This document shows positions 4,950 to 21,184 of a DNA stretch of 44,885 bases, piece by piece (within the stretch, counting starts at the first letter, position 1; every line of letters begins with the position of its first letter). The position numbers were made by a program, and so were the translations under genes. The notes beneath the pieces were generated by a model that saw nothing but the letters and a program-made list of their open reading frames with translations, was not told the DNA's origin and searched no databases. The stretch comes from Limisphaerales bacterium (GTDB taxonomy: Bacteria; Verrucomicrobiota; Verrucomicrobiia; Limisphaerales; UBA11358): positions 1 through 44,885 of the forward strand of contig JANYCI010000340.1 in the NCBI GenBank assembly GCA_025360325.1, read 5' to 3'.

Positions 4950-5270
4950 TCACGGAAACAAAGTGCGATAGAACACGGCACCGTTCGCCGGATCAATCGT
5001 GTTGGTGTAGCAACTGTTGGCCGATGTGCCGGGCACGTTCACCCAGTTCGTGCTCAAGCCGACCGCGAGCGAGTTGGTCTGCCCCTGCAAATGCCAGCCG
5101 GTGTGGTCGCCCGGCCAGCAGATGATTTCATTCAGGCCGTTCACGCTAACGACCATGTTCGTCGGGTGGGTGTTGACGCTGCCCAACGGGATGAGGGTCA
5201 GGACGACATTATCCACTTCAGGATAATTGGAGCCGCTGGGAACATCTATTGTCAGCCTGTTGCAATTCAC
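4950..5270 (-). pseudogene. Orphan C-terminal fragment of a verrucomicrobial secreted protein (C-terminal domain only)
   Basis: WPGDHTGWHLQGQTNSLAVGLSTNW...GAVFYRTLFP resembles the C-terminal domain of verrucomicrobial secreted proteins. No signal peptide, GTG start, no catalytic domain. Confidence 0.55.
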
Positions 5271-5300: not shown

Positions 5301-5834
5301 TCATTGTTTCAGCACCGTCCAGATACCGTCGCGTTTTTCCAAATTAAACGCGTCAAATCCTTTCACCGCCTCCCCGCCATTCCAGCGGCCAATAGCTTGC
5401 ACTTGATTGTTTTCTGGCTCCAGAATTTCGACGCTCAAGACGAGCGCGGGCAGTTGCATATCGAGGTCCAACGGCGATTGCGTGCCGCGCATTTCCAGAT
5501 GCCACAGTTGTTTGATCGGCGGTTGGTGGTTAGGAAATTTTTCCATCAAGGCGGTGGTGGCCGCCTGACTCGCGTGTAAAAAAACGGCGGAATAAATTCC
5601 ATCATCGCTCAAATGTCGTTGCAATAAATTTTCAAAAATCGCCGTCTCAATTTGCACGATTTCGGCCTTCCCCAATTTGCTGCCGCCAAGCGGCAATGGA
5701 TCTGGCGGCGCGGGAGCCAGCAACGCCTCACTCGGAAAAATAATTTTTTCGGAATAATTAACGCAGCCACCACCCGCACTCACGAGCAGGCAAAACCAAA
5801 CATAATTGAAAATTTTCTTCACGCGTGCTTTCAC
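5301..5834 (-). CDS. Hypothetical protein, possible lipoprotein
   Basis: Basic N-terminus, hydrophobic stretch and SAGGG-C (lipobox-like); start overlaps the exbD stop by 4 nt. Confidence 0.6.
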   Translation of the reverse strand: MKARVKKIFNYVWFCLLVSAGGGCVNYSEKIIFPSEALLAPAPPDPLPLGGSKLGKAEIVQIETAIFENLLQRHLSDDGIYSAVFLHASQAATTALMEKFPNHQPPIKQLWHLEMRGTQSPLDLDMQLPALVLSVEILEPENNQVQAIGRWNGGEAVKGFDAFNLEKRDGIWTVLKQ

Positions 5835-6235
5835 TCTGTTGCCATGCCCATTTTGGTGATTTCGAGTTGGCGCAGCGTATCGAGCACGCCGACCATGACT
5901 TGATAATCCGTGTCGTCCGCGCCTTTCACCACCACGCCCATTTCAGAATCAGCGGCTTTGAGCGCGGCGAGTTTTTCTTTTAGTTCCGGCGCGGTGACAG
6001 GTTGATGATCCAGCGTGATTTGCCCCAGCCCGTTCACTTCGATACGCGTCGGGTCCGTCTTGGGTTTATCTTTCGGCGCTTTGCCCGATGGCAAATTGAT
6101 TTCCAAATTATTCATCATCTGCGGCGTGGTGATGATGAAGATCACCAGCAACACAAACACGAGATCGAGCAACGGTGTGATGTTCAACTCCGTCATCGTG
6201 CCGTGGCCGCGCTTGGTGGTTTTCTTGAGGCTCAT
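5831..6235 (-). CDS. exbD: Biopolymer transport protein ExbD/TolR (copy 2)
   Basis: ELNITPLLDLVFVLLVIFII with the conserved TM Asp; VVVKGADDTDYQVMVGVLD. Confidence 0.92.
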   Translation of the reverse strand: MSLKKTTKRGHGTMTELNITPLLDLVFVLLVIFIITTPQMMNNLEINLPSGKAPKDKPKTDPTRIEVNGLGQITLDHQPVTAPELKEKLAALKAADSEMGVVVKGADDTDYQVMVGVLDTLRQLEITKMGMATE

Positions 6236-6891
6236 TGTAAAACTGGCTCCGTCTCTTCCTGCACGTCGAAACGCACAGTGACGTGATCGGGAAAATTTGT
6301 CGGCGGTCGGCGATCAATGCTCGTGACGATTTTGAAAACTTCTTTCACCGTCTGATCCCACTTGGAATCGCCGCTACCTTTTTGCCATTCGACATGGCTC
6401 AAGCCGCCTTGCTTATCCACGTTCACCTGCACCTCGGCGGCGAAAGCATCATCCGCCATATTTTCCGGTCGCTGCCATTTCGAGCGCAGCACATACTCGA
6501 TATAGCCTTTGTAAAGCTGCACCGGATCGTTCTCGGACAAAACGGTTTTGCCGCCCGCAAAATCAAAGCTCGGCACGTCCACGGCAGCGGGCGCGACCAC
6601 TGGCGGCGCAACCGTGGGTGCAACTTTCGGCGCTTCAATTTTCGGCGGCTCCACTTTTGGCGGAGTTGCTTTTGGTGGTTCAACCTTCGGCGGTTCCTTG
6701 GGTTTTTCCGGCTCCGGCCTTTTTTCAACCACTTTTGTCACCGTGATCGTTTGAATTTTTTTGCCGAGATAGCCTTCGCGCGCTGCAAAATAAACTAGTG
6801 CCACGATGATGACGCCATGCACCACCGCTGAAATAGTCAGGTTGGTTTTCGACGAATTCTTCGGTGCTCTCGGTTTGGATTGCGGAATCAT
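6232..6891 (-). CDS. tonB: TonB/TolA-family energy transducer
   Basis: TM helix with S-xxx-H (ISAVVHG), Pro/Lys/Glu-rich linker, C-terminal domain (W..P...GSGDSKWD). ATG 6891 overlaps the upstream exbD stop (ATGA). Confidence 0.8.
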   Translation of the reverse strand: MIPQSKPRAPKNSSKTNLTISAVVHGVIIVALVYFAAREGYLGKKIQTITVTKVVEKRPEPEKPKEPPKVEPPKATPPKVEPPKIEAPKVAPTVAPPVVAPAAVDVPSFDFAGGKTVLSENDPVQLYKGYIEYVLRSKWQRPENMADDAFAAEVQVNVDKQGGLSHVEWQKGSGDSKWDQTVKEVFKIVTSIDRRPPTNFPDHVTVRFDVQEETEPVLQ

Positions 6892-7295
6892 TTCGGCACT
6901 TCCGTTGCGAGTTCGAGTTTTGGCACGTTCGCCTGCTGGCACAAATCCAGCACGGCGCGGATGCCTTTGTATTTCGTTTTGCCATCGCCGCGCACGATGA
7001 TGTTCAAGTCAGGATCATCCGTCCGCATACTGATGAGCTTGGCGAGCAAATCGTCCATTTTTATTTCCTCGCGGTTCAAAAAAAGTTTTCCATCCGCCTG
7101 TAACGAAACGTAATTTGCCTTGCGCGGCGGGTCTTTCAGGCTCTTGCTCGCGACGGGCAATTTCAAATCCTTGTCCTCCACCGGCGGAATAGTGGTGATG
7201 ATAAAAATCACCAGCAACACGAACGCCAAGTCCAGCAGCGGCGTGATGTTCAATTCCGTCAGCGACTCGTGCGCGCTGTGCGAACATTTTTTCAT
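6888..7295 (-). CDS. exbD: Biopolymer transport protein ExbD/TolR (copy 1)
   Basis: ELNITPLLDLAFVLLVIFII; IIVRGDGKTKY. Confidence 0.92.
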   Translation of the reverse strand: MKKCSHSAHESLTELNITPLLDLAFVLLVIFIITTIPPVEDKDLKLPVASKSLKDPPRKANYVSLQADGKLFLNREEIKMDDLLAKLISMRTDDPDLNIIVRGDGKTKYKGIRAVLDLCQQANVPKLELATEVPK

Positions 7296-7304
7296 TTTAA
7301 TTCA

Positions 7305-7334
7305 GCCACCGATGGCCACCGATGAAACCCAGAT
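7305..7334. repeat. Short decamer tandem repeat between exbB and exbD
   Basis: gccaccgatg gccaccgatg aaacccagat: two identical units plus one degenerate unit. Confidence 0.45.
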
Positions 7335-7339
7335 ATTTT

Positions 7340-8173
7340 TCATTGGCCGACCGTTTCCTCCGCCGCCACGCGCCGCAAGGCATTGGTGAACTTGTCCTCG
7401 ATGTCGCGGTTGTCCACATAGGCGTGCTCCACCTGATTCGCAAAACGCGATGCAAAACCATCCAACTCCTGCGTCAGTTGGCGGATGGTCGTCACCATGA
7501 AGTTGTAAGCGAACATCGCCGGAATCGCGACCATCAGGCCGACGACCGTTGCGATAAGGGCACCCGCCACGCCGGGCGCCATCGTGGTGAGGCTCGCCTG
7601 ATTGGCTTTGGCAATGCCCGCGAACGTTTCCATCACGCCCCACACCGTGCCGAGCAAGCCGATGAACGGGCCGCCCGCGACCGCCGTGGACAACACGATC
7701 ATACCTTTTTCCAGCGACATCGCCTGCGCGCCAGCGGATTCTTCCAAAACCACTTTCACCGCCTCGAACGAAGCCGTGCTGACCTTCGTGGTCGTCTGCT
7801 GCGCCAGCCGGTCCGTGTCACCCGTGCCGGAGCTGTGATTCGCCAGTGTTCTCACCGACACCGGATTATTTTTCAAGTGATAGTTCACTTCATCCGCACC
7901 GCGCACATACAGTTGATAAGCGGGCGCGCCGTTGAACTCCGTGCCTTTTTTGTGGATGCCCATCGGGTCGCGCGTCTGCGCGTAAGCATCGTAAAATTTT
8001 TTTGACGCCCGTCGCGCGATCCACAACTGGCGAAATTTTGTGATGATGATCGTCCAACTGAACATCGAGAGGATGAACAGCACGCCGATCGTGAGCTTGC
8101 CTTCCGGCGTGGCTTTTTCAAACGCGAACTGCAACGCGTTCGCGGCGAACATGGGATGAAGAATTGTGGTCAT
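7340..8173 (-). CDS. exbB: MotA/TolQ/ExbB proton channel protein
   Basis: LFILSMFSWTII; GPFIGLLGTVWGVMETF; APGVAGALIATVVGLMVAIPA. Confidence 0.93.
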   Translation of the reverse strand: MTTILHPMFAANALQFAFEKATPEGKLTIGVLFILSMFSWTIIITKFRQLWIARRASKKFYDAYAQTRDPMGIHKKGTEFNGAPAYQLYVRGADEVNYHLKNNPVSVRTLANHSSGTGDTDRLAQQTTTKVSTASFEAVKVVLEESAGAQAMSLEKGMIVLSTAVAGGPFIGLLGTVWGVMETFAGIAKANQASLTTMAPGVAGALIATVVGLMVAIPAMFAYNFMVTTIRQLTQELDGFASRFANQVEHAYVDNRDIEDKFTNALRRVAAEETVGQ

Positions 8174-8247
8174 AAATTTGTTTTGTTTCTGTTGTCTTTA
8201 GGCATTGTTTTTTGGAACTGGTGGTCACCGCTCGAGGTTTGAGCACA

Positions 8248-8408
8248 TTCTCCCTCACCCTCAATCCCTCTCCCGCTGCGAGAGGGAAGCAGCCAGCGGC
8301 GCTCGCGGAAATTCGGCTGCACGTCGCGCCAACCCAGCCGCAGGTTTTCGCGAGCGGCGGCGAACGATCCTCCCTCTCCCAGCGGGAGAGGGCCGGGGTG
8401 AGAGAGAA
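8248..8408. repeat. Inverted-pair palindromic element (CCCTCACCC..CCCTCTCCC..GAGAGGG family)
   Basis: 8248-8287 ttctccctcaccctcaatccctctcccgctgcgagaggga is the near reverse complement of 8371-8408; inner IR cgctcgcggaaa / ttttcgcgagcg. Confidence 0.8.
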
Positions 8409-8457
8409 CGGCCACGGTCATGCTTGCCAACTCAAATCTGTTCAGAGGTTTCATCGT

Positions 8458-11400
8458 TCAAAGTTTCGGCGTCTTGGTGTCCGCCTCGGATAATTTTTTT
8501 AACGTCGGCAAAAAAACGGTGACACGACTAACTTTTTGCGCGAGCGCGATGCCCTTTTTCTTTTTAGTCAGATCCTCTTCTGACGCGTCGTTTTTCGCCG
8601 TGTCATTTTTGGTCGCCTCTGAGGAAGCACCCGTGCTGGCGGCGTTTGCGGCGGTGCCGACCTCGGTGCCTTTTTGCCCACTGGTGCCGCCGGAAATCGC
8701 TCCATTGGAAATCAGCGCGGCATCAATACTCCCGCCGCTCGCGCTCACGCCGCCCACGCCGATGAGCGTGCCAGAGACATTGCCACCGGCACTCGCGCTG
8801 ATGCTGCCTTGGGCGAGCGCGGTGACATTCACGTTTTGCTGCGCGCTCAAGTCAATCGTGTTGCGCGCAAAAATCACGCCGAGGATGCTGCCGCTGCTTT
8901 GCAATTTCACCGTGCTGCCGATGACGCCGGAGCCGCTCGCATCAATGTCGCGACCATCAGAAATTTTCACCGCCGTGCCGTTGTGAAGATTTGCCGCCGT
9001 CACCGCCTGCCCCGCGCTGTCGCGCATTTCGTAGCCAGCCAACACCTGCACGATCGCATCTGGCGCTTGGTTATGGCTGAATGGTAATTGCACGATTCCA
9101 CCCGCGCTGGCATTGACTTTGCCGTTCGGTGTTTCGACCAGAAGGTTGCCAACGAGGTTGTCTGAATTGGGAAATAACTGCGGATCAACTGACGGCGGAA
9201 AAGTCGTCGCCAAAATGCCGCTGCCGGGAATGGACGGCGTGTAAGTTTTCACCGCGTGCGTCACCGGGTCCACAAAAACTTCCGTGACCGCTGCGACCCC
9301 GCGTCCGCCCGTGCCGGCATTGATATCGCCATGCAATGATTCAACGGTGACGTTGCCGCCGTCATAGGCCGCGATGCGCGAACCGTTCACATTGATGTCG
9401 CCACCAGCCACCACGAGCACGTCTGCTTTCGCCGCCGTAAAAATGCCGCGCGCCACCGCATCGCTGCCCGCGAAAGTCGTCGAGCCGACATTGACATTGC
9501 CACCCGCGCGCACCGTCACCGCGCCGCCGTTCTGCGACGAAATCGTGGTGGAAAACATATTGAGATCGTGCGTGAGGTTCACGTTGATGGCCGCGCCGTG
9601 ATTGAAATAATTTGCAAGCGCAGTGTTGTTGATCGGGCCGACGGATTGGATGCCGAGCGTGGCGCCCAAATCCATATTGCGGGCAGTGAAATCAAACTTG
9701 CCGCCGCCGCCGATAAAATAGCCGGTGCCAGCCGACGTGGGAATGTCCTGCGTGGAATTGTAGAGATCGGTGGCTTGGGCGGAGTCGAGAATGGAAACCG
9801 TGGCGAGGACAGGATTGCCCGCGTCATCCACGAGCAGGTTGCCCTCGGCATCGCGCCGCTGGATAGTCAAGCTCGTGAGCGAGGCGAATTGGTCGCTGCT
9901 CATGCGACCTTGAAACGTCAGGACGTGCGTGGTCGGATCGTAGTTCAACCGGCTCAACAGCGCGGCGAAAGTATCTCTGTAAGGATATGCCTGACCCAGC
10001 AGCGCGAGATCAGGCGCGCTCGCCAGCGTGAGGGTGGTGAACTCATTGCGGTTCACAATGTCGCCGGTGACATTGATGCGCGTGGTGTCCGTGGCGGATA
10101 AATTTTGCCCGCTGAACCGGCTGTTATTCAGGTTGCCGCCGACGTTGATCATCGCGGCTTCATTGGCGTTGAACAGCACGCCGCTCATGTCGCCGGAAAT
10201 ATTCAGCATGACTGGCGTGGAATTATTCAAATGCAACGGCACCGGCGCGTGGCCGGTGAACGCAGAGTTTTTAAGGTATTGTCTATCGGCACTGTCAGAC
10301 ATTGTGAGTGCCGTGAGACCACTAGACGAGGTGCCGCTGAAATTACCGCTGGCCGTCGTGGTGATTTGCACGCTGCCTTGCGCGGAAGGAAACAACATCA
10401 CATCGCGATCCAGGGTCACGCCACCCGCGCCCGCCGTGAGATTGAGGATGCTGGGGAAAATTTCTGGGATGCCCGCTTCAAACTTGCCGCCGTTGCGCGG
10501 CAGACCGGCACCGGAAAGTTCGATGCCGTTACCCGCCACCAAGCTCACCGAGGCGTCGGGTGCGTAATCAAAAAAATGCTGGCTGGGAGATGGCTTGCCG
10601 CCGCTGGCGTTGCCGTTGAGCGAATTGAAAATACCGTTCGGGTTGCGAACTTCTTGAAGAAAAATATTATCCGCCGCCGTCACGTTCCAGCCGCCTTTCA
10701 CGAGGCTCAACGCGAGTTGTTTTCCAGAATTTCCGGCGTCATTACCAGCAGTGATTTTGCCCGCGCCATTCGCGACGACAAAATGTCCGAGCACATCGCG
10801 CCCGGCATTGATAGTGACATCGCCCGCCGCGCTGCCAAACGCGCCGCTCCCCGCATCGCCGCCGGGCGTTTTGGTCGTCGGCTGAAAACTGATCACATCC
10901 AGTCCGGCATTGAGCGTCACGTTGCCGCCTGCCGCCGTGCTGATGCCGCCAAGTTCCGAATCCACCGCGTAATTTGCCGTGCTGCCATCGGTCGGAGCTT
11001 GAAATACATAGCCCTTCGCTGCCGTGCCGGTGTTGATCGAACCGCCGAGCGCAGTCGCATTGATGTTGCCGCCACCCGTCGTCCGCACGAAGCCTGCGCC
11101 GACCATGATGTTATTGCCCGCGAGCAAATTCACCTCTCCGGAGTTCATCTGAATCGCGCCGCTGAAATTTTTCCCGTTGCCGCCGTTGAGAAAAATATTT
11201 CCCGTGCCGACCTGCGGAATGCCCGTGGAAAAATCCACGCCCGCCAGCACGTTCAACGCCCACGCGCCGCCATCGGTGATGAGTGAATTGTTGCCAAAAA
11301 TCACATCGCCACCGGCCAGCAACGAAACCGTCCCTGACGTGATGCCTGCGGTCATGCCGCTCAAATCCCAGATCGTGCCCGCGCTCAACGTGATGTTGCC

Positions 11401-12588
11401 CGTGGCTTGTAATTTGATGTTGGAAAAATTTTTATTCGCGAACGCCGTGTTCACATTCAGATTCAGCGTGCCGCCGCCGCTCGGCCCAACCGTGCCATCG
11501 CCGGGAATAGTGCCGCTGCCGGAATTGCCGATCACGATGTTTGCTGGGTCGAGCAAAAATTCGCTGCCGGTGAAACCTGCCTGCGCGCGGGCATCCATCG
11601 CCGAATCCAGCGACCTCACATTCGGCGCGCTCACTTCCACATTGCCGCCGTTGCCGCCGTGCGCGCCACCGGTCGTGACGATGGAACTCGACGCCGTGTC
11701 GTGAAAATTATTTTCCGATTTCAACGTCACCGTTCCGCCCGCGCTGCCGACGAGCGCATCATCACCGCGCGCAAAAATTTTTGAATGGTCGCCCAGACTT
11801 AAATCATCGGCGGCTAAAAATTCGATGACTCCATTTTGATTTCGCACCGAGTTCGCCTGCACGAGTCCATCCTGATTCACCACTTTGGCATTGAGCGCGA
11901 CCACTCCGCCATCCGCCACGATGTTGCCGTAATTATTCACCGCACCGCGCGGCAGCACCACATCCATGCTCATGCCGCGTCCATCAGGCCGTTCGCTCAA
12001 CGTCACTTTCTGACCGGCGGCAAAACCGATGCTGCCGCCGGGCGCTTCGAGATCGCCATGATTTTCCACCTTGTCCGCGATGAGAAAAACACTGCCTTTT
12101 TCGCCGACTTTGATCGTCCCGAAATTCACGATGCTCGCGAGCGGCGGTGGGCCGTTGAATTCCCACGCGCCGCCGGAATTTTGCGGTGGCATACAATTCG
12201 CAGTGGACACCACGAGTCCCGCCGCGCTGACGAATGAGTTCGGCCCAAAATAAAAGCCCGATGAATTCAGCAGCACGACGACGCCGTTCGCTTGAATGCT
12301 GCCGAAAATTTGCGATGGATTCGGATCGTTCACGCGGTTCCACACGATGGACGTGGCGGAGGGCTGATTGAAAATCGTGCGCTCGCCGTTCGCGATGTTG
12401 AACGTGGACCAATTGATCTGCGCGTTGTTCGCCGCGTTGACGGTGAGCTGCTGGCCGTTCACGGAAAAAGTGGCCACGCCGTTTTGCACCGTGAAGCCGG
12501 TAGGCAAAGCGACGGCGTTGCCAGTCAATGCCGCCAGCATTGCCGCCGTAGTGGCATGATGAGAACGGAGATTTTTTTTCTTTCTCAT
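8458..12588 (-). CDS. Filamentous-haemagglutinin-family two-partner-secretion exoprotein (TpsA-like)
   Basis: Signal peptide then TPS domain (INWSTFNI...FNQP...VWNRV...SQIFGSIQANGVVVLLNSSG), LLDPANIVI motif, long G/N/T/A-rich beta-helical repeats. Start ATG 12588 (MRKKKN...) preferred over 12660. Confidence 0.88.
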   Translation of the reverse strand: MRKKKNLRSHHATTAAMLAALTGNAVALPTGFTVQNGVATFSVNGQQLTVNAANNAQINWSTFNIANGERTIFNQPSATSIVWNRVNDPNPSQIFGSIQANGVVVLLNSSGFYFGPNSFVSAAGLVVSTANCMPPQNSGGAWEFNGPPPLASIVNFGTIKVGEKGSVFLIADKVENHGDLEAPGGSIGFAAGQKVTLSERPDGRGMSMDVVLPRGAVNNYGNIVADGGVVALNAKVVNQDGLVQANSVRNQNGVIEFLAADDLSLGDHSKIFARGDDALVGSAGGTVTLKSENNFHDTASSSIVTTGGAHGGNGGNVEVSAPNVRSLDSAMDARAQAGFTGSEFLLDPANIVIGNSGSGTIPGDGTVGPSGGGTLNLNVNTAFANKNFSNIKLQATGNITLSAGTIWDLSGMTAGITSGTVSLLAGGDVIFGNNSLITDGGAWALNVLAGVDFSTGIPQVGTGNIFLNGGNGKNFSGAIQMNSGEVNLLAGNNIMVGAGFVRTTGGGNINATALGGSINTGTAAKGYVFQAPTDGSTANYAVDSELGGISTAAGGNVTLNAGLDVISFQPTTKTPGGDAGSGAFGSAAGDVTINAGRDVLGHFVVANGAGKITAGNDAGNSGKQLALSLVKGGWNVTAADNIFLQEVRNPNGIFNSLNGNASGGKPSPSQHFFDYAPDASVSLVAGNGIELSGAGLPRNGGKFEAGIPEIFPSILNLTAGAGGVTLDRDVMLFPSAQGSVQITTTASGNFSGTSSSGLTALTMSDSADRQYLKNSAFTGHAPVPLHLNNSTPVMLNISGDMSGVLFNANEAAMINVGGNLNNSRFSGQNLSATDTTRINVTGDIVNRNEFTTLTLASAPDLALLGQAYPYRDTFAALLSRLNYDPTTHVLTFQGRMSSDQFASLTSLTIQRRDAEGNLLVDDAGNPVLATVSILDSAQATDLYNSTQDIPTSAGTGYFIGGGGKFDFTARNMDLGATLGIQSVGPINNTALANYFNHGAAINVNLTHDLNMFSTTISSQNGGAVTVRAGGNVNVGSTTFAGSDAVARGIFTAAKADVLVVAGGDINVNGSRIAAYDGGNVTVESLHGDINAGTGGRGVAAVTEVFVDPVTHAVKTYTPSIPGSGILATTFPPSVDPQLFPNSDNLVGNLLVETPNGKVNASAGGIVQLPFSHNQAPDAIVQVLAGYEMRDSAGQAVTAANLHNGTAVKISDGRDIDASGSGVIGSTVKLQSSGSILGVIFARNTIDLSAQQNVNVTALAQGSISASAGGNVSGTLIGVGGVSASGGSIDAALISNGAISGGTSGQKGTEVGTAANAASTGASSEATKNDTAKNDASEEDLTKKKKGIALAQKVSRVTVFLPTLKKLSEADTKTPKL

Positions 12589-12610
12589 AAAATTATTCGT
12601 GCTCGTAAAA

Positions 12611-15562
12611 TCAAAATTGCCCGCCCGCGCCAAAATAAACGTGCATTCCATCGCCGCCATAATTGTTGGCGATAGATTTTGGAAATGGGTTCATGACCGG
12701 CCAGGCCAGCATGACGCGCGCATCCAGATGGCTGCCAATGCTGGCCGTGAGACCACAACCAGCGCCCATAAACTCGATGCTCTTGGGCGTTTGCGGCGTG
12801 GTTGAATAGGTAAATAATTGCCCGTAGTCCAAGAACACGGAGCCGCGCATCCACATCGGCACATCGCCGTCCCATACCCCGACATTGATCAATGGTGTCC
12901 GGGGTTCGATGGACGCGCGCCAGCCGGCATCACCTTGACTTGAGCCTTCAGAAAAACCGCGCACGCCAGCGGTGCCACCCATCGAAAAGCGTTCGTTGGA
13001 AAAGAGCGGCGTGGAGGCCCACTGGCCATCGGCGCGTATCAGCATCGTCCAGTCGTGATACAGCCGTTGCTCGCGCACAACGCCCGCTTGGATGGTGAAA
13101 TAATTATCCCGCGCCCGCGCTGGCGTGTTCGTGGAAATGACGTGCGTGACGGCATTGCTGATTATGGTAGCTGGCACACCCGCGCTGTAAGCCAGTTGCG
13201 AGAGCGAGCCGACGCTACCGATATTGTAATTGCCTTGAACATTGAACGAGGACGAACCGTATTTATCCGGGTGAAAAGTGCTGAAGCCTAGGTTGAGCGG
13301 AAAATAGGTCACCGCCGAGTGCCGCGTCGGTTGCGCTGAAGGAATCGTCTGAATCAGGTTCGTCGGCCCGAACTGGTTCGTGTAGGTGATCGTGGCAATA
13401 AAGTTGTTAGTATTGTAACTGACTTGGTTGTATTGCTTGTAGTCCACGCCGAATGAAAGGCTGGAAGCAAACTTGCCCAAAGTTGGTAAGGGTAAATTAA
13501 ATTTTGCACCGAGGTTTTGATTCAGCGTGACGTTCTGGCCGGAGTCTTGCGAATCAATCACCACTAGGTTTGGCGGCGGAATAATGTGCTTGAGAGTGCC
13601 CAACTGAACGCCCGTATCAGAAACCGCGCGGGAGGTGTAAAGCGTCAGTTCGGGATGCCCGGACGGCGGCGGCATGACAAACTTGTGCGTGACTTCGTTG
13701 TAGCCAAACTGCCCGTGGCCATCGTCAATCTGCTTCTGGATGGATTGCGTGTGCGCCAGCGGCAGCCGGTAATAAAGACTCTGGTTCGCGATCAGCGGCA
13801 GGTCGAGCGGCGAAAAATAAAAATTTTTTCCGCTGTTAAAACTCAATGGCGAAAAACCGTAGGCGAAACCGATCTGATGTTCCAACTGCCAGAGGTTGCC
13901 GTATTGGGCGTTGCCGGTGACGCGCGCCTCCGGCGTGCCGGGCGTGCCGGAGTTGTTGATCTCCACGCGACCGTGGACGGGAAAACGGTCTTTCACTTTC
14001 AGCGCCAGCTCGGTCGTGCCCGGCTCCGGGCCGGGGCTGATGACGGGATAAATTTGGCGGTCACGATTCGCGTTCGCCGCGTCCAGTTCGGTTTGAAAGA
14101 CGTGTGAATTCAGCATCATGTTCGAGCGCAGACTGGGCAACGAACGTAAAACATTTTCGGTGCTGAAATACTCGTTGCCCTTCACGGTCACGCCAGATAA
14201 ACGCCCTTCGGTCACTTTGATTTTCACCGTGGCGTTCGTCAATTTCTGCGGCGGCAAGGCTACCGACACCGTGACGAAACCACGTTCACGATAGGCCATC
14301 TGCAAATCTCCGAGCAGCCCGCGAATGTCGCCGAACACCACGTTTGTGCCGAACGCCGTCGGCGAATTGAGCAGAATTCGTTGCAATTCATTTTCCGGCA
14401 GCAACGAATTTCCTTCGACGAGATAATTTTCCACCTTGAATCCCGCCACCGCATTGGTGGCGGCAGCTTCAGATTTTTTGGCATTGCCCTCGGCCAGTAG
14501 CGTCGGCGACGCCGTCACCAAAATCGTGACCGCTGGTTTCACGGGCGCGGTGTCTGGCGGGAGTGTCACCGGCAAGCTGCTGGGGTCTTGGCGAATCACC
14601 GGCGGGGCTTCAAATAATTTTTGAACGAGCGCCGCCCGCGCTGCCGCTTGCTCCGGGTTGTCCTGCAACTCGGCGCGCACTTCGCCCGCGCAGGCGAACG
14701 AACCCACCACCGCCAGCATTGCCAGTGTGCGATTAGAACTTTTTTTTACCGCCTTCGGAAAATTTTTCTGACGCCACTCGCCCGGCGTGAGGCCGAAACG
14801 TTTTTTGAACATCGTGTTGAACAGGCCGAGGTGCCGGTAGCCGCTCTCGTAAGCGACGTTGATGATTTTCGCGTTGCTGTCCACCAGCAGTTGCCGCGCA
14901 CGCAGGAGCCGTAGTTCGGTCTGGCGATTGCGTAAGGCCACGCCGAATTCCTCGCGAAACATCCGGCTGAAATGGCGCTCGCTGCAATTCAACTCGCCGG
15001 CCAGTTCGGGTAGCAAGCGGATGGCCAGTTCCGCGTCGGGCATTTTACCGATGAATTCCCGGAAACGTTCCCGTAGCCGCAGTTGCAAATTGGCGTCCGG
15101 CACGGGCGCGGTGAGCATATTGCCGATGGCCTGCGACCAGAGTTGCAGCAACCCGGAACGCACCGCCAGCCCCTCGCGCTGTGGCTGGGCGACGAGATGT
15201 TTGAACTTTTGCCCGATGGTATCCTGCGCCGTGAATAAAAAAACTGGCGCGGTATTTTTATCTTCGCACCGCTCCAGCCGGTGCGTCTCCGCGACCGTGA
15301 GCAAGCCGTTGAGAAACTGCGGCTGCACCAAATAAAATTCGAGCCGCAACTGACCGAGCGAACTAGCGCGCAAAATAAATTGAGCGCGGCCATTACAAGT
15401 AAAGCCGTCGCCGGGATTCAGTTCCCGCGCATTGCTGCCTTGCCGCGAATAGCCGACGCCCTCGGCGACACGCAGCACCGTCCAGCCTTGCGCGGACGGA
15501 GTCCATTCGCCGGCGGGATGCAGGGTCAGTTCCTGCAACACCAAGTGTCGTTCAATCGTCAT
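12611..15562 (-). CDS. Fusion: AraC-family regulator + internal signal peptide + POTRA + ShlB/FhaC/HecB (TpsB) beta-barrel
   Basis: AraC double HTH (LAGELNCSERHFSRMFREEFG...LLRARQLL...IINVAYESGYRHLGLFNTMFKKRFGLTPGEWR); then KKSSNRTLAMLAVVGSFACAGEVRA; POTRA (FKVENYLVEGNSLL...YRERGFVTVSVALPPQ); Omp85 motif GGTAGVRGF; C-terminal Phe. Confidence 0.85.
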   Translation of the reverse strand: MTIERHLVLQELTLHPAGEWTPSAQGWTVLRVAEGVGYSRQGSNARELNPGDGFTCNGRAQFILRASSLGQLRLEFYLVQPQFLNGLLTVAETHRLERCEDKNTAPVFLFTAQDTIGQKFKHLVAQPQREGLAVRSGLLQLWSQAIGNMLTAPVPDANLQLRLRERFREFIGKMPDAELAIRLLPELAGELNCSERHFSRMFREEFGVALRNRQTELRLLRARQLLVDSNAKIINVAYESGYRHLGLFNTMFKKRFGLTPGEWRQKNFPKAVKKSSNRTLAMLAVVGSFACAGEVRAELQDNPEQAAARAALVQKLFEAPPVIRQDPSSLPVTLPPDTAPVKPAVTILVTASPTLLAEGNAKKSEAAATNAVAGFKVENYLVEGNSLLPENELQRILLNSPTAFGTNVVFGDIRGLLGDLQMAYRERGFVTVSVALPPQKLTNATVKIKVTEGRLSGVTVKGNEYFSTENVLRSLPSLRSNMMLNSHVFQTELDAANANRDRQIYPVISPGPEPGTTELALKVKDRFPVHGRVEINNSGTPGTPEARVTGNAQYGNLWQLEHQIGFAYGFSPLSFNSGKNFYFSPLDLPLIANQSLYYRLPLAHTQSIQKQIDDGHGQFGYNEVTHKFVMPPPSGHPELTLYTSRAVSDTGVQLGTLKHIIPPPNLVVIDSQDSGQNVTLNQNLGAKFNLPLPTLGKFASSLSFGVDYKQYNQVSYNTNNFIATITYTNQFGPTNLIQTIPSAQPTRHSAVTYFPLNLGFSTFHPDKYGSSSFNVQGNYNIGSVGSLSQLAYSAGVPATIISNAVTHVISTNTPARARDNYFTIQAGVVREQRLYHDWTMLIRADGQWASTPLFSNERFSMGGTAGVRGFSEGSSQGDAGWRASIEPRTPLINVGVWDGDVPMWMRGSVFLDYGQLFTYSTTPQTPKSIEFMGAGCGLTASIGSHLDARVMLAWPVMNPFPKSIANNYGGDGMHVYFGAGGQF

Positions 15563-15721
15563 TTTGCAGCGCGCAGGATGTCGCAGCGAAATGGCGGCTG
15601 CGTTTCAACAACGTGACGAACTGGCAACTTTAGGAAAAATTTCATGTCCGAATAGTGCAGGCGAATTGTGTTGAACGGGTCGCCGACCTAGAAGTTTTGG
15701 CAAAGCGGATTCATCAGCGGC

Positions 15722-15760
15722 AAAAAAAGAACCGGCGCGGTGTGCGGTCACCGCGCCGGT
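15722..15760 (-). terminator. Rho-independent terminator after the PstS-like gene
   Basis: 12-bp perfect stem accggcgcggtg / caccgcgccggt followed on the minus strand by TCTTTTTTT. Confidence 0.85.
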
Positions 15761-15789
15761 CTGGGGGGGAGGGTTGGCAGATGTGTTGA

Positions 15790-17031
15790 TTAAGGCGCGA
15801 TCGGACCGCCAACGGAAGTGCGGAGAACGTTCATGTCGCCCAAGCGGATCGCGTTGCGCGTCGTTTGCGTGGCGATGTCGCCATCAACGGTGTCAACGCC
15901 GCCGACAAAGTTTTCCGGGTTCGAGGTGTCGTAGCCGCAAAGTTTGCGGGTGAAGTTCAGGATGTCGGTGGCATTGATGGTATTGTCGCCGCCGGGGGTC
16001 TTGGGTTGGGCCACGATTTCATACGCCCAATAACTATATTGGCCGTTGCGGCACGAATCATACGACGGCACAGCGGGCACCGCCGCACCAGTCTTGATGT
16101 CGGTGGAAGGATAAGCTCCGTTGTAGGACAGGATGTTCAAGCCCCCGTTCACACCGCGCGCATCGCTGATGCCGACATAGCCGATGGCCACGCACTTGGC
16201 GTTGGAAGCCAAGGCCGGAACTTTCAACACATTGGCCAGATCGCTGCCGCCCACATAGCCGTAGCCATAAAGCGCCGGGCCGAGATTGTTGGTTGCAGCA
16301 TAAAAATTGGCCACGCCGCCGTTGGTCTGCCAGTAATACACCTGCGGCGAACCGGAGACGTTCGCATCCGCATAGGCCGTGACGCGCGTGCCGGAGTCCA
16401 GCGTGCGGTTCACGAGATAGCAGTTCGTGCCCGCGTCGTTGGTGTTGCCAGTGAGATAGGAGAGCTTCACCACGCCGTTGGGCATGAACTGCTGCAACTG
16501 CTGGATGGTGATGTTCGTCACGGTCGCCGGGCAATTCAAGCTACGGACGTAGACGAAGGGTTGCAATGCCACCTGACGTTCAATGAAAGATGCGGCGGCC
16601 AGCGGATACGCCGTCGAGGCCGAGTCCACGTCGGTGAACGCGAGCGTCGCGGTGTTCGTGGTCAGCACCTGGTCGTTCAGCGTGGCGTTCTTGAAATACA
16701 CGCCCTTGTCCGTCACGTCGTAGAGCGCATGGATGCCCTGCACCGAGCCGTTGAAGTTGGCGTGAACAATCACCGTCTGCGAACCGAAGACGGTGCTCAT
16801 CTGGCCGGAGGTGGTCCAGCGGCTGGCCGTCGGGCTGAACGTGGCGGCACCGCTATTCATCGTGAAGGCACTGGAATAGAGGTTGCTAACGGCAAAGAAC
16901 GCGCTCGAGCGGAATGCGGTCGAGCCGGTGAGATAGATGTCTTTTGTTTGCGCCTGCGCGGAGCTGACTCCGAGCAAACAGCCGAGGGCAGACAAGGCGA
17001 GGATTTTTTTCATGGGGTTTAGTTGTTTCAT
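15790..17031 (-). CDS. Secreted PstS/DING-like periplasmic-binding-fold protein
   Basis: Signal peptide (MKKILALSALGCLLGVSSAQA; alternative start 17013). Motifs LTGSTAF, NRTLDSGT, AIGYVG and NGQYSYW parallel the PstS GST, RxxxSGT, IGYV and GxYP motifs in order. Confidence 0.6.
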   Translation of the reverse strand: MKQLNPMKKILALSALGCLLGVSSAQAQTKDIYLTGSTAFRSSAFFAVSNLYSSAFTMNSGAATFSPTASRWTTSGQMSTVFGSQTVIVHANFNGSVQGIHALYDVTDKGVYFKNATLNDQVLTTNTATLAFTDVDSASTAYPLAAASFIERQVALQPFVYVRSLNCPATVTNITIQQLQQFMPNGVVKLSYLTGNTNDAGTNCYLVNRTLDSGTRVTAYADANVSGSPQVYYWQTNGGVANFYAATNNLGPALYGYGYVGGSDLANVLKVPALASNAKCVAIGYVGISDARGVNGGLNILSYNGAYPSTDIKTGAAVPAVPSYDSCRNGQYSYWAYEIVAQPKTPGGDNTINATDILNFTRKLCGYDTSNPENFVGGVDTVDGDIATQTTRNAIRLGDMNVLRTSVGGPIAP

Positions 17032-17064
17032 GGTGTTTAGTTAAAAGTTAATTCAATGTTATTT

Positions 17065-18045
17065 TTATTGTGCAGAAATCATGTAGAAGCGCGGAGTCGT
17101 GGTGGTGGTTTCAGTGAGTGATTGCACCGAATTGTTGCCGCTCACCGAGCCAAGCACCGTCCATGATGCCTTGGGGGTGGTGAGTGTGCTCGTGGCGCGC
17201 AACGTGTAAGTGCCGCTGGAGCCGGTCGTGAAATTAACTGTTGAAAGAGTGCCAACGCGAGTGATTCCCGTGATGACCGGCGTCGTCACCGAGCCGATTG
17301 AGGCAGCGGTAAAAGTCAGCGCACCGCTCGTGCTCAATTGAAAATAACCGAGGTAGGTGGAGGGCGGATGGGAAACGACTGTGCCGCCCGGAACGATCCA
17401 ATACAAATCCGCCCGCACCGGCGAGCCATCGGTCGTGAACGTCGAGGAAGTCGTCTGCTCTGTGATGCCAAAACCGCCCCAGTTGCCAGACACCCCGAGC
17501 AAGCTGTTATAGCTGAACGTCGGCGAGACATTCAACGCCTCGGCCTCGATCAGATAATTCGGCTGGTTCGTATTGACCGCCGCCGGCAACGACGCGCCGA
17601 TGTAATTGCCACCATAACCCGCGCCGTCAACCTTGGCCCGCGTGGTTCCCTGAGCGCTCGCGATGTAACGCAGCCAAGGCGACGACTGAATGTTGTTATC
17701 CGTCCGGGCACGCGTCATGAACAAAGTGTTCTGCTGCGCCGCATCGGGATAAGTCACATCAAAACAGCCGAACGCCGACCACGCTAAATCGTTCGTCGTT
17801 CCAAAAGCGTGCTTCAGCAAAGTGCCAGACAAGTTCGCGATCGTGATCGTGGTTCCCGGCGTCTGGTTGGTGAAGGAAGCGGCCGAACCCGCCCTGACCA
17901 CCAAGTCATTATTGCCACCCGCCGTCAGGCGGAAGCCGACGAGGAGGTCACCATTGTTGTAAGAAAAGGTCTGTGCATTCGTCGCGCAAGCCAGAGCCAG
18001 CGCGGTGCCCGCACAAACTTTTTTGCTCAAAGAAAAAATGTTCAT
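17065..18045 (-). CDS. Secreted/surface protein with verrucomicrobial C-terminal domain
   Basis: Signal peptide ending ATNA-Q; YNNGDLLVGFR N-terminus; Thr/Ser-rich; C-terminal PVITGI...YTLRAT...SW...PRFYMISAQ. Start could be 18045, 18066 or 18075. Confidence 0.75.
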   Translation of the reverse strand: MNIFSLSKKVCAGTALALACATNAQTFSYNNGDLLVGFRLTAGGNNDLVVRAGSAASFTNQTPGTTITIANLSGTLLKHAFGTTNDLAWSAFGCFDVTYPDAAQQNTLFMTRARTDNNIQSSPWLRYIASAQGTTRAKVDGAGYGGNYIGASLPAAVNTNQPNYLIEAEALNVSPTFSYNSLLGVSGNWGGFGITEQTTSSTFTTDGSPVRADLYWIVPGGTVVSHPPSTYLGYFQLSTSGALTFTAASIGSVTTPVITGITRVGTLSTVNFTTGSSGTYTLRATSTLTTPKASWTVLGSVSGNNSVQSLTETTTTTPRFYMISAQ

Positions 18046-18550
18046 AGGTTTGTTGGTTAGTTTCATCACCAACATCCTAGAGACATTTGCTCACTTAAAC
18101 TTTCAGCTTGCGGCCAGCGAGGTTCACAATTACGCCAACCGTCCGCGCTAGATTTGCCCGGTGAAACAATGCGGAATTACTCATTAGCTCGGGCGCGCGA
18201 ATAATAAAACGGCTCGCGTTGCTTGATTGTAACTTATCTGAAGCCTGCATCCGCCGCGCATTTTCCGAAAAATCAATTTACCATTGCGAGCACAACCAAA
18301 ACTTTTTCAATGGTGCGCGCCAGTAGTGAGGTTAAGTCGAAAGGAATTTTTTTCGGAAAATTCGCGAATCCACCGCCGCCAGCACGAGGAACGGCAGTAA
18401 CAAAATCACCATCCGAAACAGCCATTTGCGCCGTGGCGTCAGCGGAGGCGCGCAGCGGGTGGGCGACGAATCGGGTTTGACTGGTAAGATTCTGACTTCA
18501 AAAACCCTCCCGAGCTCGTTTTTTTGAACTACGATTTCAGATGCCGCTTT

Positions 18551-18952
18551 CTAAAAAAGTTGATCCAACGGATTACATTCTTTAGATGGCTGCCAATAAG
18601 TCGTCGCTCCTTTTTTTTGTTTGAGCTGCAACGGGTCTTTACCCAGCAACCGCAAAACCCAGCCCACCGGCGTGATGACGAAAATAAAAAATACCAGCAG
18701 CACGCAGCGGCCGATGAACTGGCTGGAATAAAATCCTAGCCACAACGAAACCCGATACCATCCGCGAAACCAGCGCGGTTGCAGCATGGCGCAGAGTGCC
18801 ACTACCGCGAGAACCGCGAGGATCACACACCAGACATTTTGCGGCAGATGCTTCCGCCAGCGCAGGAGCGAACTGATGAGCGCCAATCCCAACGCGGTTA
18901 GCAGCGTGGACTTGCGCCACTCCTTCGGCTCTTCTTGGTAAATCAGTTTCAT
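18551..18952 (-). CDS. SxtJ-family membrane protein
   Basis: Hydrophobic helices, FFIFVITPVGWVLRLLGKDPL and TYW...LDQLF C-terminus; immediately downstream of the carbamoyltransferase. Confidence 0.75.
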   Translation of the reverse strand: MKLIYQEEPKEWRKSTLLTALGLALISSLLRWRKHLPQNVWCVILAVLAVVALCAMLQPRWFRGWYRVSLWLGFYSSQFIGRCVLLVFFIFVITPVGWVLRLLGKDPLQLKQKKGATTYWQPSKECNPLDQLF

Positions 18953-18953
18953 C

Positions 18954-20774
18954 TCAATCAGCTTGCGGTAGTATGCGGCGGGAAATTTTCTGCTGCGGTT
19001 GCGCGGTGCGTTCGATCACAAAATTTCCCAAAATGAGATAGTCCATCTCCGTGTTCATGAAGCAACGATACGCATCGTCCGGCGTGCAGACAATCGGTTC
19101 GCCGCGCACGTTGAACGATGTGTTCACCAGCACGCCGCAACCCGTCTTCTGCTCGAAGCGTTGGAGTAAATCATATAGGAGCGGATTTCCTTCTGCGTCC
19201 ACGGTTTGAATGCGCGCGGAATAATCCACATGAGTGATGGCCGGCAGCGTGGAGCGAATTTCCTTCAGCCGGTTGAGTCCCGTCGTGTCCGGCGCAACGG
19301 CGCGGCACAATTCTTTTTTCACCGGCGCGACCAGCAGCATATACGGCGACTCGACATCGAGATCAAAATAATCCGCCACGCGTTCGCGGCGGACGATCGG
19401 CGCAAACGGTCGGAATGATTCCCGGAACTTCACCTTCAAATTCATCACCGACTGCATCTTCGTCGAACGCGCGTCGCCGATGATTGAACGGTTGCCGAGC
19501 GCGCGCGGGCCGAATTCCATGCGCCCTTGGAACCAACCGATGACCTTTTCGGCTTTCAAAATTTCCACTGTGAAATCGAGCAATGCGTCTGGTTCCAGCT
19601 TTTGGAAAACGGCGTTGTGCGAGCGCAACACAGTTTCAATTTCGTCATCCGAAAATTCCGGCCCCAACAGCGAGGCTTGCATCGAATCCAAAGGCGCGGC
19701 CACGCGTTTGTTTTCTTTCTGCGCATGCCACGCGACGAGCGCGGCGACGAGCGCACCGCCGGCATCACCCGCCGCCGGCTGAATCCAAATCCGCTCAAAA
19801 ATTTTCGCGCGCAGAATGATTCCATTCGCCACGCAGTTGAGCGCCACGCCGCCGGCCATGCACAAATTTTTCTGGCCGGTCACTTCGCGCGCGTGCCTGA
19901 CGAGCAGCACCATGATTTCTTCCGTGACCAGTTGGATGGAGCGAGCGACATCCATGTGCCGCTGCTCGATTTTCTCCTCCGCCCCGCGCGGCGGCCCGCC
20001 GAAAAGCCGGTAAAATTTTTCATTGGTCATCGTCGTGCCGCGCAGAAAATTGAAATACTCCAAGTTCAGCCAGAACGAGCCGTCGGGCTTGAGGTCGAGC
20101 AATTCGCGACGGATAGCGTCGGCGTATTTCGGTTCGCCATACGGCGCGAGGCCCATGAGTTTGTATTCGCCGGAGTTGATGCGGAAACCGCAGTAGTCAG
20201 TGAACGCGGAATAAACCAAGCCGAGCGAATGTGGAAAGCGGAGTTCCTTCAGCATCTTGATTTCACGGCCGCGCCCGTGGCTGATGGTCGTGGTCGCCCA
20301 TTCGCCCACGCCGTCAATCGTGAGAATCGCCGCCTCGTCAAACGGCGACGGATAAAATGCGCTGGCCGCGTGCGATTGATGATGCTCGGTGAAAAGAATT
20401 TTGCAATCCGGCCGCAGTCCCGGCAGTGCCGCGCGGATGGCTTTGCGTAAATCCAGTTTCTCACCGAGCCAGTTCGACACCACCGTGGGAAACGTCCGCC
20501 AGCCGCCGGGCGCGACGGCCAGATACGTTTCGAGCAGCCGTGTAAATTTCAAGACCGGCTTGTCGTAAAAAACGACGGCATCGAGTTGTGCCGTCGTCAG
20601 GTGCGCGTGACGCAGGCAAAATTGCGCGGCGTGATGTGGAAAATCGGCATCGTTTTTCTTGCGGGTAAAACGTTCCTCCTGCGCGGCAGAAATAATTTTT
20701 CCATCCACGACCAGCGCGGCGGCCGAGTCGTGATAATACGCCGAGACGCCCAAGATGTTGCGTGGCGCGGGCAC
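18954..20774 (-). CDS. O-carbamoyltransferase (NodU/CmcH/TobZ family)
   Basis: SAYYHDSAAAL, QEERFTRKK, HHQSHAASAF, DGVGE, GEYKLMGLAPYG, EFGPRALGNRS, KFRESFRPFAP, NTSFNVRGEPIV. Confidence 0.95.
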   Translation of the reverse strand: MPAPRNILGVSAYYHDSAAALVVDGKIISAAQEERFTRKKNDADFPHHAAQFCLRHAHLTTAQLDAVVFYDKPVLKFTRLLETYLAVAPGGWRTFPTVVSNWLGEKLDLRKAIRAALPGLRPDCKILFTEHHQSHAASAFYPSPFDEAAILTIDGVGEWATTTISHGRGREIKMLKELRFPHSLGLVYSAFTDYCGFRINSGEYKLMGLAPYGEPKYADAIRRELLDLKPDGSFWLNLEYFNFLRGTTMTNEKFYRLFGGPPRGAEEKIEQRHMDVARSIQLVTEEIMVLLVRHAREVTGQKNLCMAGGVALNCVANGIILRAKIFERIWIQPAAGDAGGALVAALVAWHAQKENKRVAAPLDSMQASLLGPEFSDDEIETVLRSHNAVFQKLEPDALLDFTVEILKAEKVIGWFQGRMEFGPRALGNRSIIGDARSTKMQSVMNLKVKFRESFRPFAPIVRRERVADYFDLDVESPYMLLVAPVKKELCRAVAPDTTGLNRLKEIRSTLPAITHVDYSARIQTVDAEGNPLLYDLLQRFEQKTGCGVLVNTSFNVRGEPIVCTPDDAYRCFMNTEMDYLILGNFVIERTAQPQQKISRRILPQAD

Positions 20775-21175: not shown

Positions 21176-21184
21176 TGTTATATT
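21176..21184 (+). promoter_or_regulatory. Possible extended -10 promoter element
   Basis: TG-t-TATATT about 27 nt upstream of ATG 21212, which is preceded by GGAG. Confidence 0.3.

Follow-up and report, generated by a model that had tools for sequence, protein, structure and literature searches.

A two-partner secretion pair with an ExbB-ExbD-TonB motor of its own in Limisphaerales: a conserved TpsA tail as possible TonB handle, and an AraC-TpsB fusion

A 44,885-nucleotide stretch of DNA (contig JANYCI010000340.1; hereafter the window) from a soil and sediment bacterium of the Limisphaerales carries a two-partner secretion (TPS) pair, TpsB and TpsA, followed by a complete set of genes for an ExbB-ExbD1-TonB-ExbD2 motor. 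We tentatively read this locus, with somewhat less than even confidence in the reading as a whole, as a conserved envelope module of one Verrucomicrobiota order (subdivision 3 / Limisphaerales) in which the TPS pair is served by its own motor pulling the C-terminal tail of TpsA, probably for phosphorus. TpsB would export the 1400-residue TpsA fibre and the flexible C-terminal tail of the fibre would remain in the periplasm, where the C-terminal domain of the dedicated TonB would capture the R-V-T-V-[IL]-L-P strand of the tail in the fashion of a TonB box; the proton-motive force would then pull the tail, gating or partly retracting the TpsA-TpsB assembly. The TPS pair would in this way do the job of the plug-and-barrel TonB-dependent transporter (TBDT) to which motors of the same type are joined in sister genera.

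This motor is distinct from the housekeeping one and is an accessory paralogue. Elsewhere in the genome, contig C172 carries another ExbB-ExbD-TonB set and contig C146 a further TonB, which brings the TonB-like genes to three, and the ExbB of the window (type A) is 35% identical over 240 residues (38% in a second comparison) to the housekeeping copy on C172. ExbB identities across 61 relatives form two groups: a housekeeping ExbB with 35-45% identity (up to 54% in a few partial matches), found in 61/61 genomes, and type A ExbB at 57% identity or more over its full length, which within the genus occurs in 29 of the 30 genomes with a TpsB homologue and in none of the six without one. Synteny between the ton genes and the TPS pair in relatives, on which the original prediction had staked itself beforehand, holds. 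In 16 of the 20 loci fetched around TpsB homologues exbB lies directly after tpsA, two loci have the ton genes in a divergent AraC-headed unit and two have none in the fetched stretch; the link even survives rearrangement into divergent AraC-exbB and tpsB-tpsA units (L023 and L025). A scan with the TpsA tail alone, over one genome per species and with a six-row alignment of the narrow pattern L-A-Q-K-V-S-R-V-T that reaches close relatives only, found 48 loci, titled Verrucomicrobia subdivision 3 or Limisphaerales type save for a few odd bin labels, and type A exbB adjoins the tail in 40 of the 43 whose downstream sequence was long enough to judge. An even sample of the order (251 genomes, 132 genera) had the tail in 54 genomes and type A exbB in 86, namely in 51 of the 54 tail-bearing genomes and 35 of the 197 without a tail, counts that are descriptive and overstate significance because related genomes are not independent. 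For 39 of the 66 tail copies exbB lies downstream on the same strand at less than 1 kb; for three it lies at 1.1 kb, for 11 at 8-14 kb, for nine on another contig and for four nowhere in the genome. None of 400 further genomes sampled from the phylum (two of them from this order) yielded the tail, and the module looks order-specific among the genomes searched.

The C-terminus of TpsA is the second feature on which our reading depends. TpsA matches the TPS domain well over the cut-off (PF05860, E 3.2e-25, 89.9 bits against 33.5), as it does TIGR01901 (E 8.1e-19), and an extended signal peptide can be read in its sequence. Its last 70 residues consist of a low-complexity acidic run and a Lys run followed by L-A-Q-K-V-[SG]-R-V-T-V-[IL]-L-P, and in 19 orthologues, which take in rearranged loci and other families, the V, T, V and L of this motif never vary and the R and P hardly do; outside the motif the tail is of low complexity and variable. 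Searched against 1.84 billion proteins, a profile of the tail matches 294 representative clusters, with the match at or near the protein end in the 150 clusters listed and full-length members of 1000-1750 residues; no such C-terminus occurs among the long open reading frames (ORFs) of four conventional TPS loci fetched from relatives. A complex prediction of TonB residues 100-219 with the 70-residue tail scored 0.58 against 0.00 for the best control, a mark reached by 58 of 80 solved complexes and two of 110 mismatched pairs, seven of those 80 complexes and both passing mismatches having reached it with a score of 0.60 or less; at least 71% of contacts agreed between the runs and the predicted local distance difference test (pLDDT) of the partner was at least 49. 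The idea of the TpsA tail as a partner of TonB, raised with the original prediction, thus fits a strictly conserved C-terminal strand motif and draws weak support from the complex prediction. In the available text of PMC5422565 the C-termini of HMW1 and HxuA are likewise held to stay periplasmic, and no TpsA with a TonB box was found among the literature matches listed.

All genes of the locus are co-oriented on the minus strand of positions 5301-18075, with the set and limits originally proposed, and follow one another downstream as 336-residue protein, PstS-like protein, AraC-TpsB, TpsA, ExbB, ExbD1, TonB, ExbD2 and probable lipoprotein. The features are:

17065-18075, minus strand: secreted protein of 336 residues, an ORF with a signal-peptide-like N-terminus, first gene of an upstream two-gene unit
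15790-17031, minus strand: PstS-like periplasmic binding protein of 413 residues, with a signal peptide, a profile match and a fold match
15730-15761, minus strand: terminator-like hairpin between the PstS-like and AraC-TpsB genes, from a consensus scan only (13-bp stem with 10 G-C pairs, then a T run)
12611-15562, minus strand: AraC-TpsB fusion, a single ORF of 983 residues with HTH_18, POTRA_2 and ShlB/Omp85 matches
14765-15562, minus strand: AraC part of the fusion, residues 1-266, an unassigned N-terminal domain and HTH_18 (PF12833, PF00165)
14663-14728, minus strand: putative internal signal peptide or transmembrane segment of the fusion, residues ~279-300, from the junction alignment of 16 orthologues
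12611-14440, minus strand: TpsB part of the fusion, residues 375-983, stop included (PF08479, PF03865, PF01103)
8458-12660, minus strand: TpsA exoprotein, 1400 residues as the longest ORF (PF05860, TIGR01901), with a likely start at Met25 (12588)
8461-8670, minus strand: TpsA C-terminal tail, from the tail alignment
8506-8526, minus strand: TonB-box-like strand motif R-V-T-V-F-L-P in the TpsA tail, conserved in 19 orthologues
8174-8457, no strand: spacer of 284 nt between tpsA and exbB with a repeated element, unusually long against orthologous spacers
7340-8173, minus strand: ExbB/TolQ-family proton channel, accessory type A paralogue (PF01618)
6888-7295, minus strand: ExbD/TolR paralogue 1 (PF02472)
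6232-6891, minus strand: TonB-like protein, 219 residues from the likely start (PF13103); the full ORF is 6232-6942
5831-6235, minus strand: ExbD/TolR paralogue 2 (PF02472)
5301-5834, minus strand: probable lipoprotein of 177 residues, with a Cys after a hydrophobic leader ending G-G-G-C

The likely tpsA start lies about 22 nt after the end of tpsB, and the last four genes are translationally coupled, as had been proposed, through start/stop overlaps of ATGA (exbD1/tonB), ATGA (tonB/exbD2) and GTGA (exbD2/lipoprotein). The whole stretch is spanned, with 0 indels, by contigs from four public DNA runs of one study that may have sampled the source itself, and a single public contig piece of 4191 bases bridges the AraC-TpsB junction. 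The spacer at 8174-8457 contains G-rich repeats, and orthologous spacers measure about 15-85 nt; the public contigs break there, with a 2-3x rise in depth at 8283-8708 and loose ends beginning at 8384, and a partial copy of the element lies on contig C362 of the same genome. It looks like an inserted repeat element, and the 94-residue ORF at 8170-8454 is probably spurious and not a gene.

The motor proteins are recognized by their Pfam families, all over the cut-off: ExbB (PF01618, E 2.3e-28), ExbD1 (PF02472, E 1.4e-25) and ExbD2 (PF02472, E 2.4e-25), the two ExbD proteins being 36-37% identical and both carrying the transmembrane Asp, and TonB (TonB_2, PF13103, E 2.5e-8, 34.3 bits against a cut-off of 22). 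The TonB-like protein has a transmembrane helix with S-x3-H, a Pro/Lys/Glu-rich spacer and a C-terminal domain, and S21 and H25 are invariant in 12 orthologues. The S-x3-H signature is also that of TolA, and NCBIfam scored tonB_Cterm (22.5 bits, cut-off 27.1) and tolA_full (25.8 bits) both below cut-off; no NCBIfam equivalog cut-off was reached by any of the motor proteins. We call the set Ton-like by context, because the motors of sister genera are fused to a TBDT. The two ExbD genes that the original prediction pointed to are not an unusual trait: paired heterologous tolR-like genes of the PVC group (Planctomycetota, Verrucomicrobiota and Chlamydiota) are already described in the available text of PMC12204202. 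Orthologues of the 177-residue lipoprotein were found in five distinct loci, including L007 (on the same contig as L041), L016, L048 and L067, and its Atlas neighbours are named putative lipoprotein or hypothetical protein.

The search for outer-membrane clients of this motor led to sister genera. Scans of the whole genome with Plug and TBDT-barrel models found no TBDT on the window contig, so that the absence originally reported holds for the window; it does not hold for the genome, where Plug or barrel matches lie on contigs C93, C372, C217, C294 and C258 and the one on C93, which alone has both, is a canonical TBDT. The proteins on C217, C294 and C258 (1184-1228 residues) match only the first half of the barrel model, are not canonical TBDTs and appear from their sequence to begin with a FecR-like part. 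Within the genus TBDTs are scarce: five well-assembled relatives have between zero and two barrel matches each, none of them near the cluster. Two relatives have no Plug match and keep both ExbB types: G003 (97% complete), with no barrel over the Pfam cut-off, and G032 (80% complete), with no barrel match at all. In all five other genera examined in which no such TPS pair stands beside type A exbB-exbD, the next ORF is about 960-1000 residues long and joins a TonB N-terminus (S-x3-H helix and Pro-rich spacer) to a Plug and a TBDT barrel, with no TonB C-terminal domain (L027, 501-3506, minus strand; L029, 3288-6167, plus strand; L031, 9409-12375, plus strand; also L028 and L030). Four of these five sister genomes lack the TpsB of the module, and the fifth, G039, has a weak conventional TpsB match on another contig. 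As we read its sequence, this ORF would encode a single polypeptide that extends from inner to outer membrane, and its presence in five of five sister genera suggests that the motor family is hard-wired to a dedicated outer-membrane barrel, by a covalent join in these genera; the notion that the motor is by nature independent of TBDTs has therefore to be given up. In L029 the TonB-TBDT fusion is followed by a giant protein of 2189 residues (6442-13011, plus strand) with a Phytase-like match (E 2.3e-39), immunoglobulin (Ig) domains and a weak PhoX match, and the other four loci (L027, L028, L030 and L031) carry proteins homologous to its N-terminal half, of which two are truncated at the locus end; this points to a phosphorus-scavenging context for the motor family in the sister genera. 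We found no paper on a TonB-TBDT fusion, and the portion of PMC12204202 that was available has no passage on TPS, Omp85 or such fusions.

The two secreted proteins encoded upstream of TpsB bear on what the module might handle. No Pfam or NCBIfam family matches the 413-residue protein at E<=0.01; a profile built on 13 orthologues matches the solved PstS1 structure 4exl (E 8.6e-5), with the S-D and R-x3-S-G-[TS]-R motifs aligned, and its AlphaFold2 (AF2) model finds 51 Foldseek matches at E<=0.001 (best E 4.5e-8), of which nearly all those listed are phosphate-binding proteins of the PstS/DING type. The label PstS-like that it bore in the original prediction is accordingly sound at the level of fold, and beyond the one solved PstS no family profile backs it. 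Residues T38, S96, D134, R209, S213, G214 and T215 are invariant in the 13 orthologues and F40 nearly so, and the S-D and R-x3-S-G-T positions are presumably the phosphate ligands, as in E. coli PstS; phosphate binding seems likely. Since this protein appears to keep the PstS ligand positions and the sister clusters carry the phytase/PhoX-like giant protein, the cargo of the module is probably a phosphorus source. The 336-residue protein belongs to no Pfam or NCBIfam family; its AF2 model (pLDDT 62) has a C-terminal beta-sandwich, and the fold search gave no PDB match at E<=0.001 and, above E 0.01, only FN3/Ig-like matches. Its Atlas neighbours are Verrucomicrobiota hypothetical proteins only, and its orthologues lie upstream of TpsB in most related loci, where it is the most constant companion of TpsB, even in loci without AraC or PstS-like genes.

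Neighbourhoods of this kind are not new. According to the available text of PMC2729926 and PMC7035377, the PUMA3/VreI segment of Pseudomonas aeruginosa has the order pdtA-phdA-pdtB-exbB2-exbD2-tonB4-PA0696, is induced by phosphate starvation and includes a Ton set that is called "still uncharacterized", and an association of TPS with ExbBD is noted there in several Proteobacteria. The neighbourhood that the original prediction called uncharacterised was therefore already in print for P. aeruginosa, where it stands unexplained. The published segment resembles our locus in having a TpsA/TpsB pair beside an extra ExbB-ExbD-TonB set with no TBDT between them, in the phosphate-starvation context and in an AraC-like gene (PA0701a) nearby in Pseudomonas; it differs in having an ECF (extracytoplasmic function) sigma/anti-sigma pair with VreA where we find AraC fused to TpsB, a single ExbD, and the order tpsA-tpsB. 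The hxuCBA system of Haemophilus influenzae is also akin, as described in the available sections of PMC5422565, in that a TPS pair serves TonB-dependent nutrient capture and the HxuA C-terminus is held to stay periplasmic, which keeps the protein on the cell; there, however, a separate TBDT, HxuC, does the importing and TonB is not thought to touch HxuA/HxuB, whereas here the cluster has no TBDT and a dedicated motor is present. With TBDTs the proposed arrangement would share a strand motif, carried by a flexible segment in the periplasm, that serves the TonB C-terminal domain as a handle, together with the S-x3-H helix and the Pro-rich spacer. In TBDTs the handle sits at the N-terminus of the plug within a 22-stranded barrel, whereas here it would be the C-terminus of a secreted substrate threaded through a barrel of the ShlB/Omp85 family. 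The resemblance to TonB-dependent cell-surface signalling of the FecA-FecR-FecI type is functional only, and none of the ten cluster proteins matches the TBDT transducer, anti-sigma or ECF families.

These comparisons bear on alternative explanations of the locus. The first would have motor and TPS pair share no more than a regulon: the motor would power a barrel encoded elsewhere, both would belong to one AraC-controlled starvation regulon, and there would be no contact with TpsA or TpsB. The canonical TBDT on C93 and the four barrel-only matches in the genome fit this explanation, as do the TBDT beside the same motor type in sister genera, the standalone AraC homologues directly upstream of type A exbB in G020, G036 and G050, the nine tail copies with the motor on another contig, and the P. 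aeruginosa counterpart, which forms one inorganic phosphate starvation regulon in the available text of PMC7035377. A common regulon, however, does not need the gap of less than 100 nt that is kept in most loci, G003 retains both motors although at 97% completeness it has no TBDT over the cut-off, the ubiquitous housekeeping motor is at hand in every one of the 61 relatives, and the conserved tail motif would be left unexplained. We consider this explanation unlikely.

According to a second alternative, which we judge quite improbable, the motor acts on the TPS module by way of another target, such as the POTRA domain or linker of TpsB, the 336-residue protein, the PstS-like protein or the lipoprotein, and the tail motif serves, for example, for retention in the TpsB pore or docking on POTRA. 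The constancy of the 336-residue protein beside TpsB speaks for it, and so does the anchoring of the TpsA C-terminus in TpsB known for HMW1 and HxuA (available text of PMC5422565). The TpsB linker of the window also holds a TonB-box-like run, P-A-V-T-I-L-V-T-A, shared with its closest relative P0002; on the other side, neither the helix of the linker nor its strand-like run is conserved, the linker being missing in L007-L010 and P0077. A helix-like stretch after the signal segment is kept in some orthologues and absent in these same loci and P0077. For this lack of conservation of the linker, an FhaC-like H1 helix and a TonB box in that linker were both dropped as general features.

A role on the export side, in which the motor would energise or time the secretion, folding or release of TpsA, as outward work or as a brake, and would not serve uptake, receives still less credence from us. 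A TBDT is required for protease secretion in Myxococcus, in the accessible part of PMC6434023, and that of PMC5422565 treats as an open question what drives TPS secretion, for which no energy source is known; according to the latter, canonical TPS systems nevertheless work without a motor, and the PstS-like protein and the phytase/PhoX context of the sister genera point to acquisition.

Our own reading, of a motor that pulls the TpsA tail, has several points to answer as well, beside the non-independence of the genomes. There is no exbB within 1.2 kb of 24 of the 66 tail copies, and 46 of 99 type A exbB copies do not adjoin a tail. The tail motif is likened to a TonB box by its fit to the general consensus; a score in the band of our complex prediction is, for a pairing that was not likely in advance, wrong more often than it is right, and the pass may reflect likeness only, because TonB:TonB-box complexes have already been solved. 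The canonical TBDT on C93 could be served by the motor of the window, and NCBIfam scores the motor closer to Tol than to Ton, with TolQ (145 bits, cut-off 221) above ExbB (97 bits, cut-off 206) and TolR above ExbD. The module is linked to phosphate indirectly: many related loci have no PstS-like protein, the model of this protein has a pLDDT of only 61 and the mapping of its ligand residues is taken over from E. coli PstS. As for the fusion described below, TpsB occurs without AraC in 15 related loci, and its cleavage is read from a motif.

The fusion of AraC to TpsB is real and is in our view the most unusual single feature of the locus; the original prediction listed araC-tpsB as one item and drew nothing from its being fused. 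The AraC part carries HTH_18 at residues 187-265 (PF12833, E 3.6e-22; PF00165, E 4.1e-13; both over the cut-off), its best NCBIfam matches being AraC-type regulators, all under the cut-off, and POTRA_2 follows at residues 375-453 (PF08479, E 1.6e-12). The barrel matches ShlB (PF03865, E 1.2e-16) and Omp85 (PF01103, E 5.8e-6), these and the POTRA_2 match all exceeding the cut-off, and a G-V-R-G-F loop motif can be read in the sequence. POTRA, the barrel and the position beside TpsA identify this part as a TpsB. Between the two parts the helix-turn-helix (HTH) is followed by a basic stretch, a hydrophobic core of 15-20 residues, a small-residue site, a variable linker and then POTRA; the hydrophobic 15-mers at the junction have Kyte-Doolittle values of 1.8-2.65 in 16 orthologues, and A-Q-[TA] follows the core in 13 of the 16. 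AraC/XylS regulators are soluble cytoplasmic proteins, which this one is not, its HTH continuing in frame into the hydrophobic segment and TpsB. Ten of the 16 fused frames, that of the window included, have no ATG, GTG or TTG between the end of the HTH and the core, which indicates that the TpsB signal sequence is made only as an internal segment of the fusion; in the remaining six, where a junction start could exist, none is preceded by a Shine-Dalgarno-like run. N-terminal signal peptides encoded in the window carry a site of the same kind as A-Q-[TA], which points to cleavage by signal peptidase, and most likely the fusion is cut at this conserved A|Q-T-type site. The AraC regulator would thus be made as a cytoplasmic N-terminal extension of the TpsB signal peptide and freed by signal peptidase, which would tie the amount or release of the regulator to TpsB export; a later release by a site-2 protease may be envisaged by analogy with regulated intramembrane proteolysis (RIP).

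RsiV is reportedly an example of a RIP pathway whose first protease is signal peptidase, and the fusion shares with RIP and one-component regulators a cytoplasmic regulatory domain, a single membrane segment and a signal-peptidase-type site; it differs from RsiV in that the exported part is an outer-membrane beta-barrel transporter and the regulator is an AraC-type activator and not an anti-sigma factor. That the fusion is an artefact or without function, through loss of a stop codon or a faulty assembly, TpsB being translated from an internal start, is hardly credible, a judgement that concerns the fusion only: the two halves do lie in different frames in locus L020, and seven of eight standalone AraC homologues have no membrane segment, so that anchoring is not intrinsic to the regulator, but the 120 best of 479 database relatives all carry HTH_18, POTRA_2 and ShlB (named [quoted passage not shown] by the Joint Genome Institute), one open frame is kept in 15 of the 16 fetched class 1 loci despite many indels and junctions that vary in length by up to ~200 residues, the junction starts are missing or unsupported as said, and the public contigs of four runs have no indel. 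The standalone AraC homologues and the loci with a TpsB free of AraC indicate that the fusion is an add-on to a TPS-Ton core. We found no paper on an AraC-signal peptide-TpsB fusion in our literature searches, which took in PMC4104836. In some fusions (L013, L017, P0098 and P0116) one more POTRA-like domain is placed after the internal signal segment and before the conserved linker helix, and these proteins reach about 1100-1200 residues. A second class of the module (L022-L025, in G020, G030, G018 and G014) has a TpsB of 40-45% identity with an extra POTRA-like repeat and a separate, divergently transcribed AraC gene without a membrane segment, and its ton genes lie behind that AraC gene or elsewhere in the genome.

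A fuller mechanical version of our reading, which we hold to be rather unlikely, would make the locus a TonB-energised type Vb machine. TpsA would be threaded through TpsB with its tail acting as a TonB box in trans, and the fibre would be reeled or gated for phosphorus, with the PstS-like protein possibly as the capture unit on the fibre; AraC would be freed by signal peptidase and then by a site-2 protease, so that transcription would report successful export. Were this true, the locus together with the TonB-TBDT fusions of the sister genera would define motors physically tethered to their outer-membrane clients, and a mechanism would be on offer for the unexplained pdtAB-exbB2D2-tonB4 cluster. 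The PstS-containing appendages of P. aeruginosa, in the available portion of PMC2242829, may be compared with the proposed capture unit.

Outside the module, a 106-residue ORF (4950-5270, minus strand) lies just downstream of the lipoprotein gene and encodes a domain of ~75 residues with no Pfam family; copies of this domain at 26-64% identity occur on 25 or more further contigs of the same genome. Beyond the ORF, at 4917-4884, lies a strong terminator-like hairpin. On the other side, a 652-residue protein with Ig domains (21125-23083, plus strand) shares 29% identity along 204 residues of its C-terminal part with the final portion of the phytase-like giant protein in L029. The flanks at 18551-20774 and 23070-44669 (minus strand) encode a carbamoyltransferase and an SxtJ-like small protein and a long cluster of glycosyltransferases, a sulfotransferase, an APS (adenosine 5'-phosphosulfate) kinase, methyltransferases and an ATP-binding cassette exporter, which from its sequence looks like a cluster for sulfated polysaccharide synthesis, and an N-methyl/DUF1559 protein stands at the end of the window.

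As far as our searches reach, the neighbourhood itself is known and unexplained, and what is new is the conserved TpsA tail, the quantified, order-wide link to the motor, the AraC-TpsB fusion and the TonB-TBDT fusions. A private Ton motor on a TPS pair across many genera calls into question both the view of type V secretion as energy-free and that of TonB as serving 22-stranded plugged barrels, and a contact between TonB and the conserved tail of TpsA would also bear on the pdtAB-exbB2D2-tonB4 cluster, published in 2009 and still lacking a mechanism. In the AraC-signal peptide-TpsB fusion a transcription factor is coupled in a new manner to a protein that is exported. Should the link to phosphorus prove right, Verrucomicrobiota subdivision 3, which is well represented among metagenome-assembled genomes from the environment, would have in this module a candidate device for nutrient capture.

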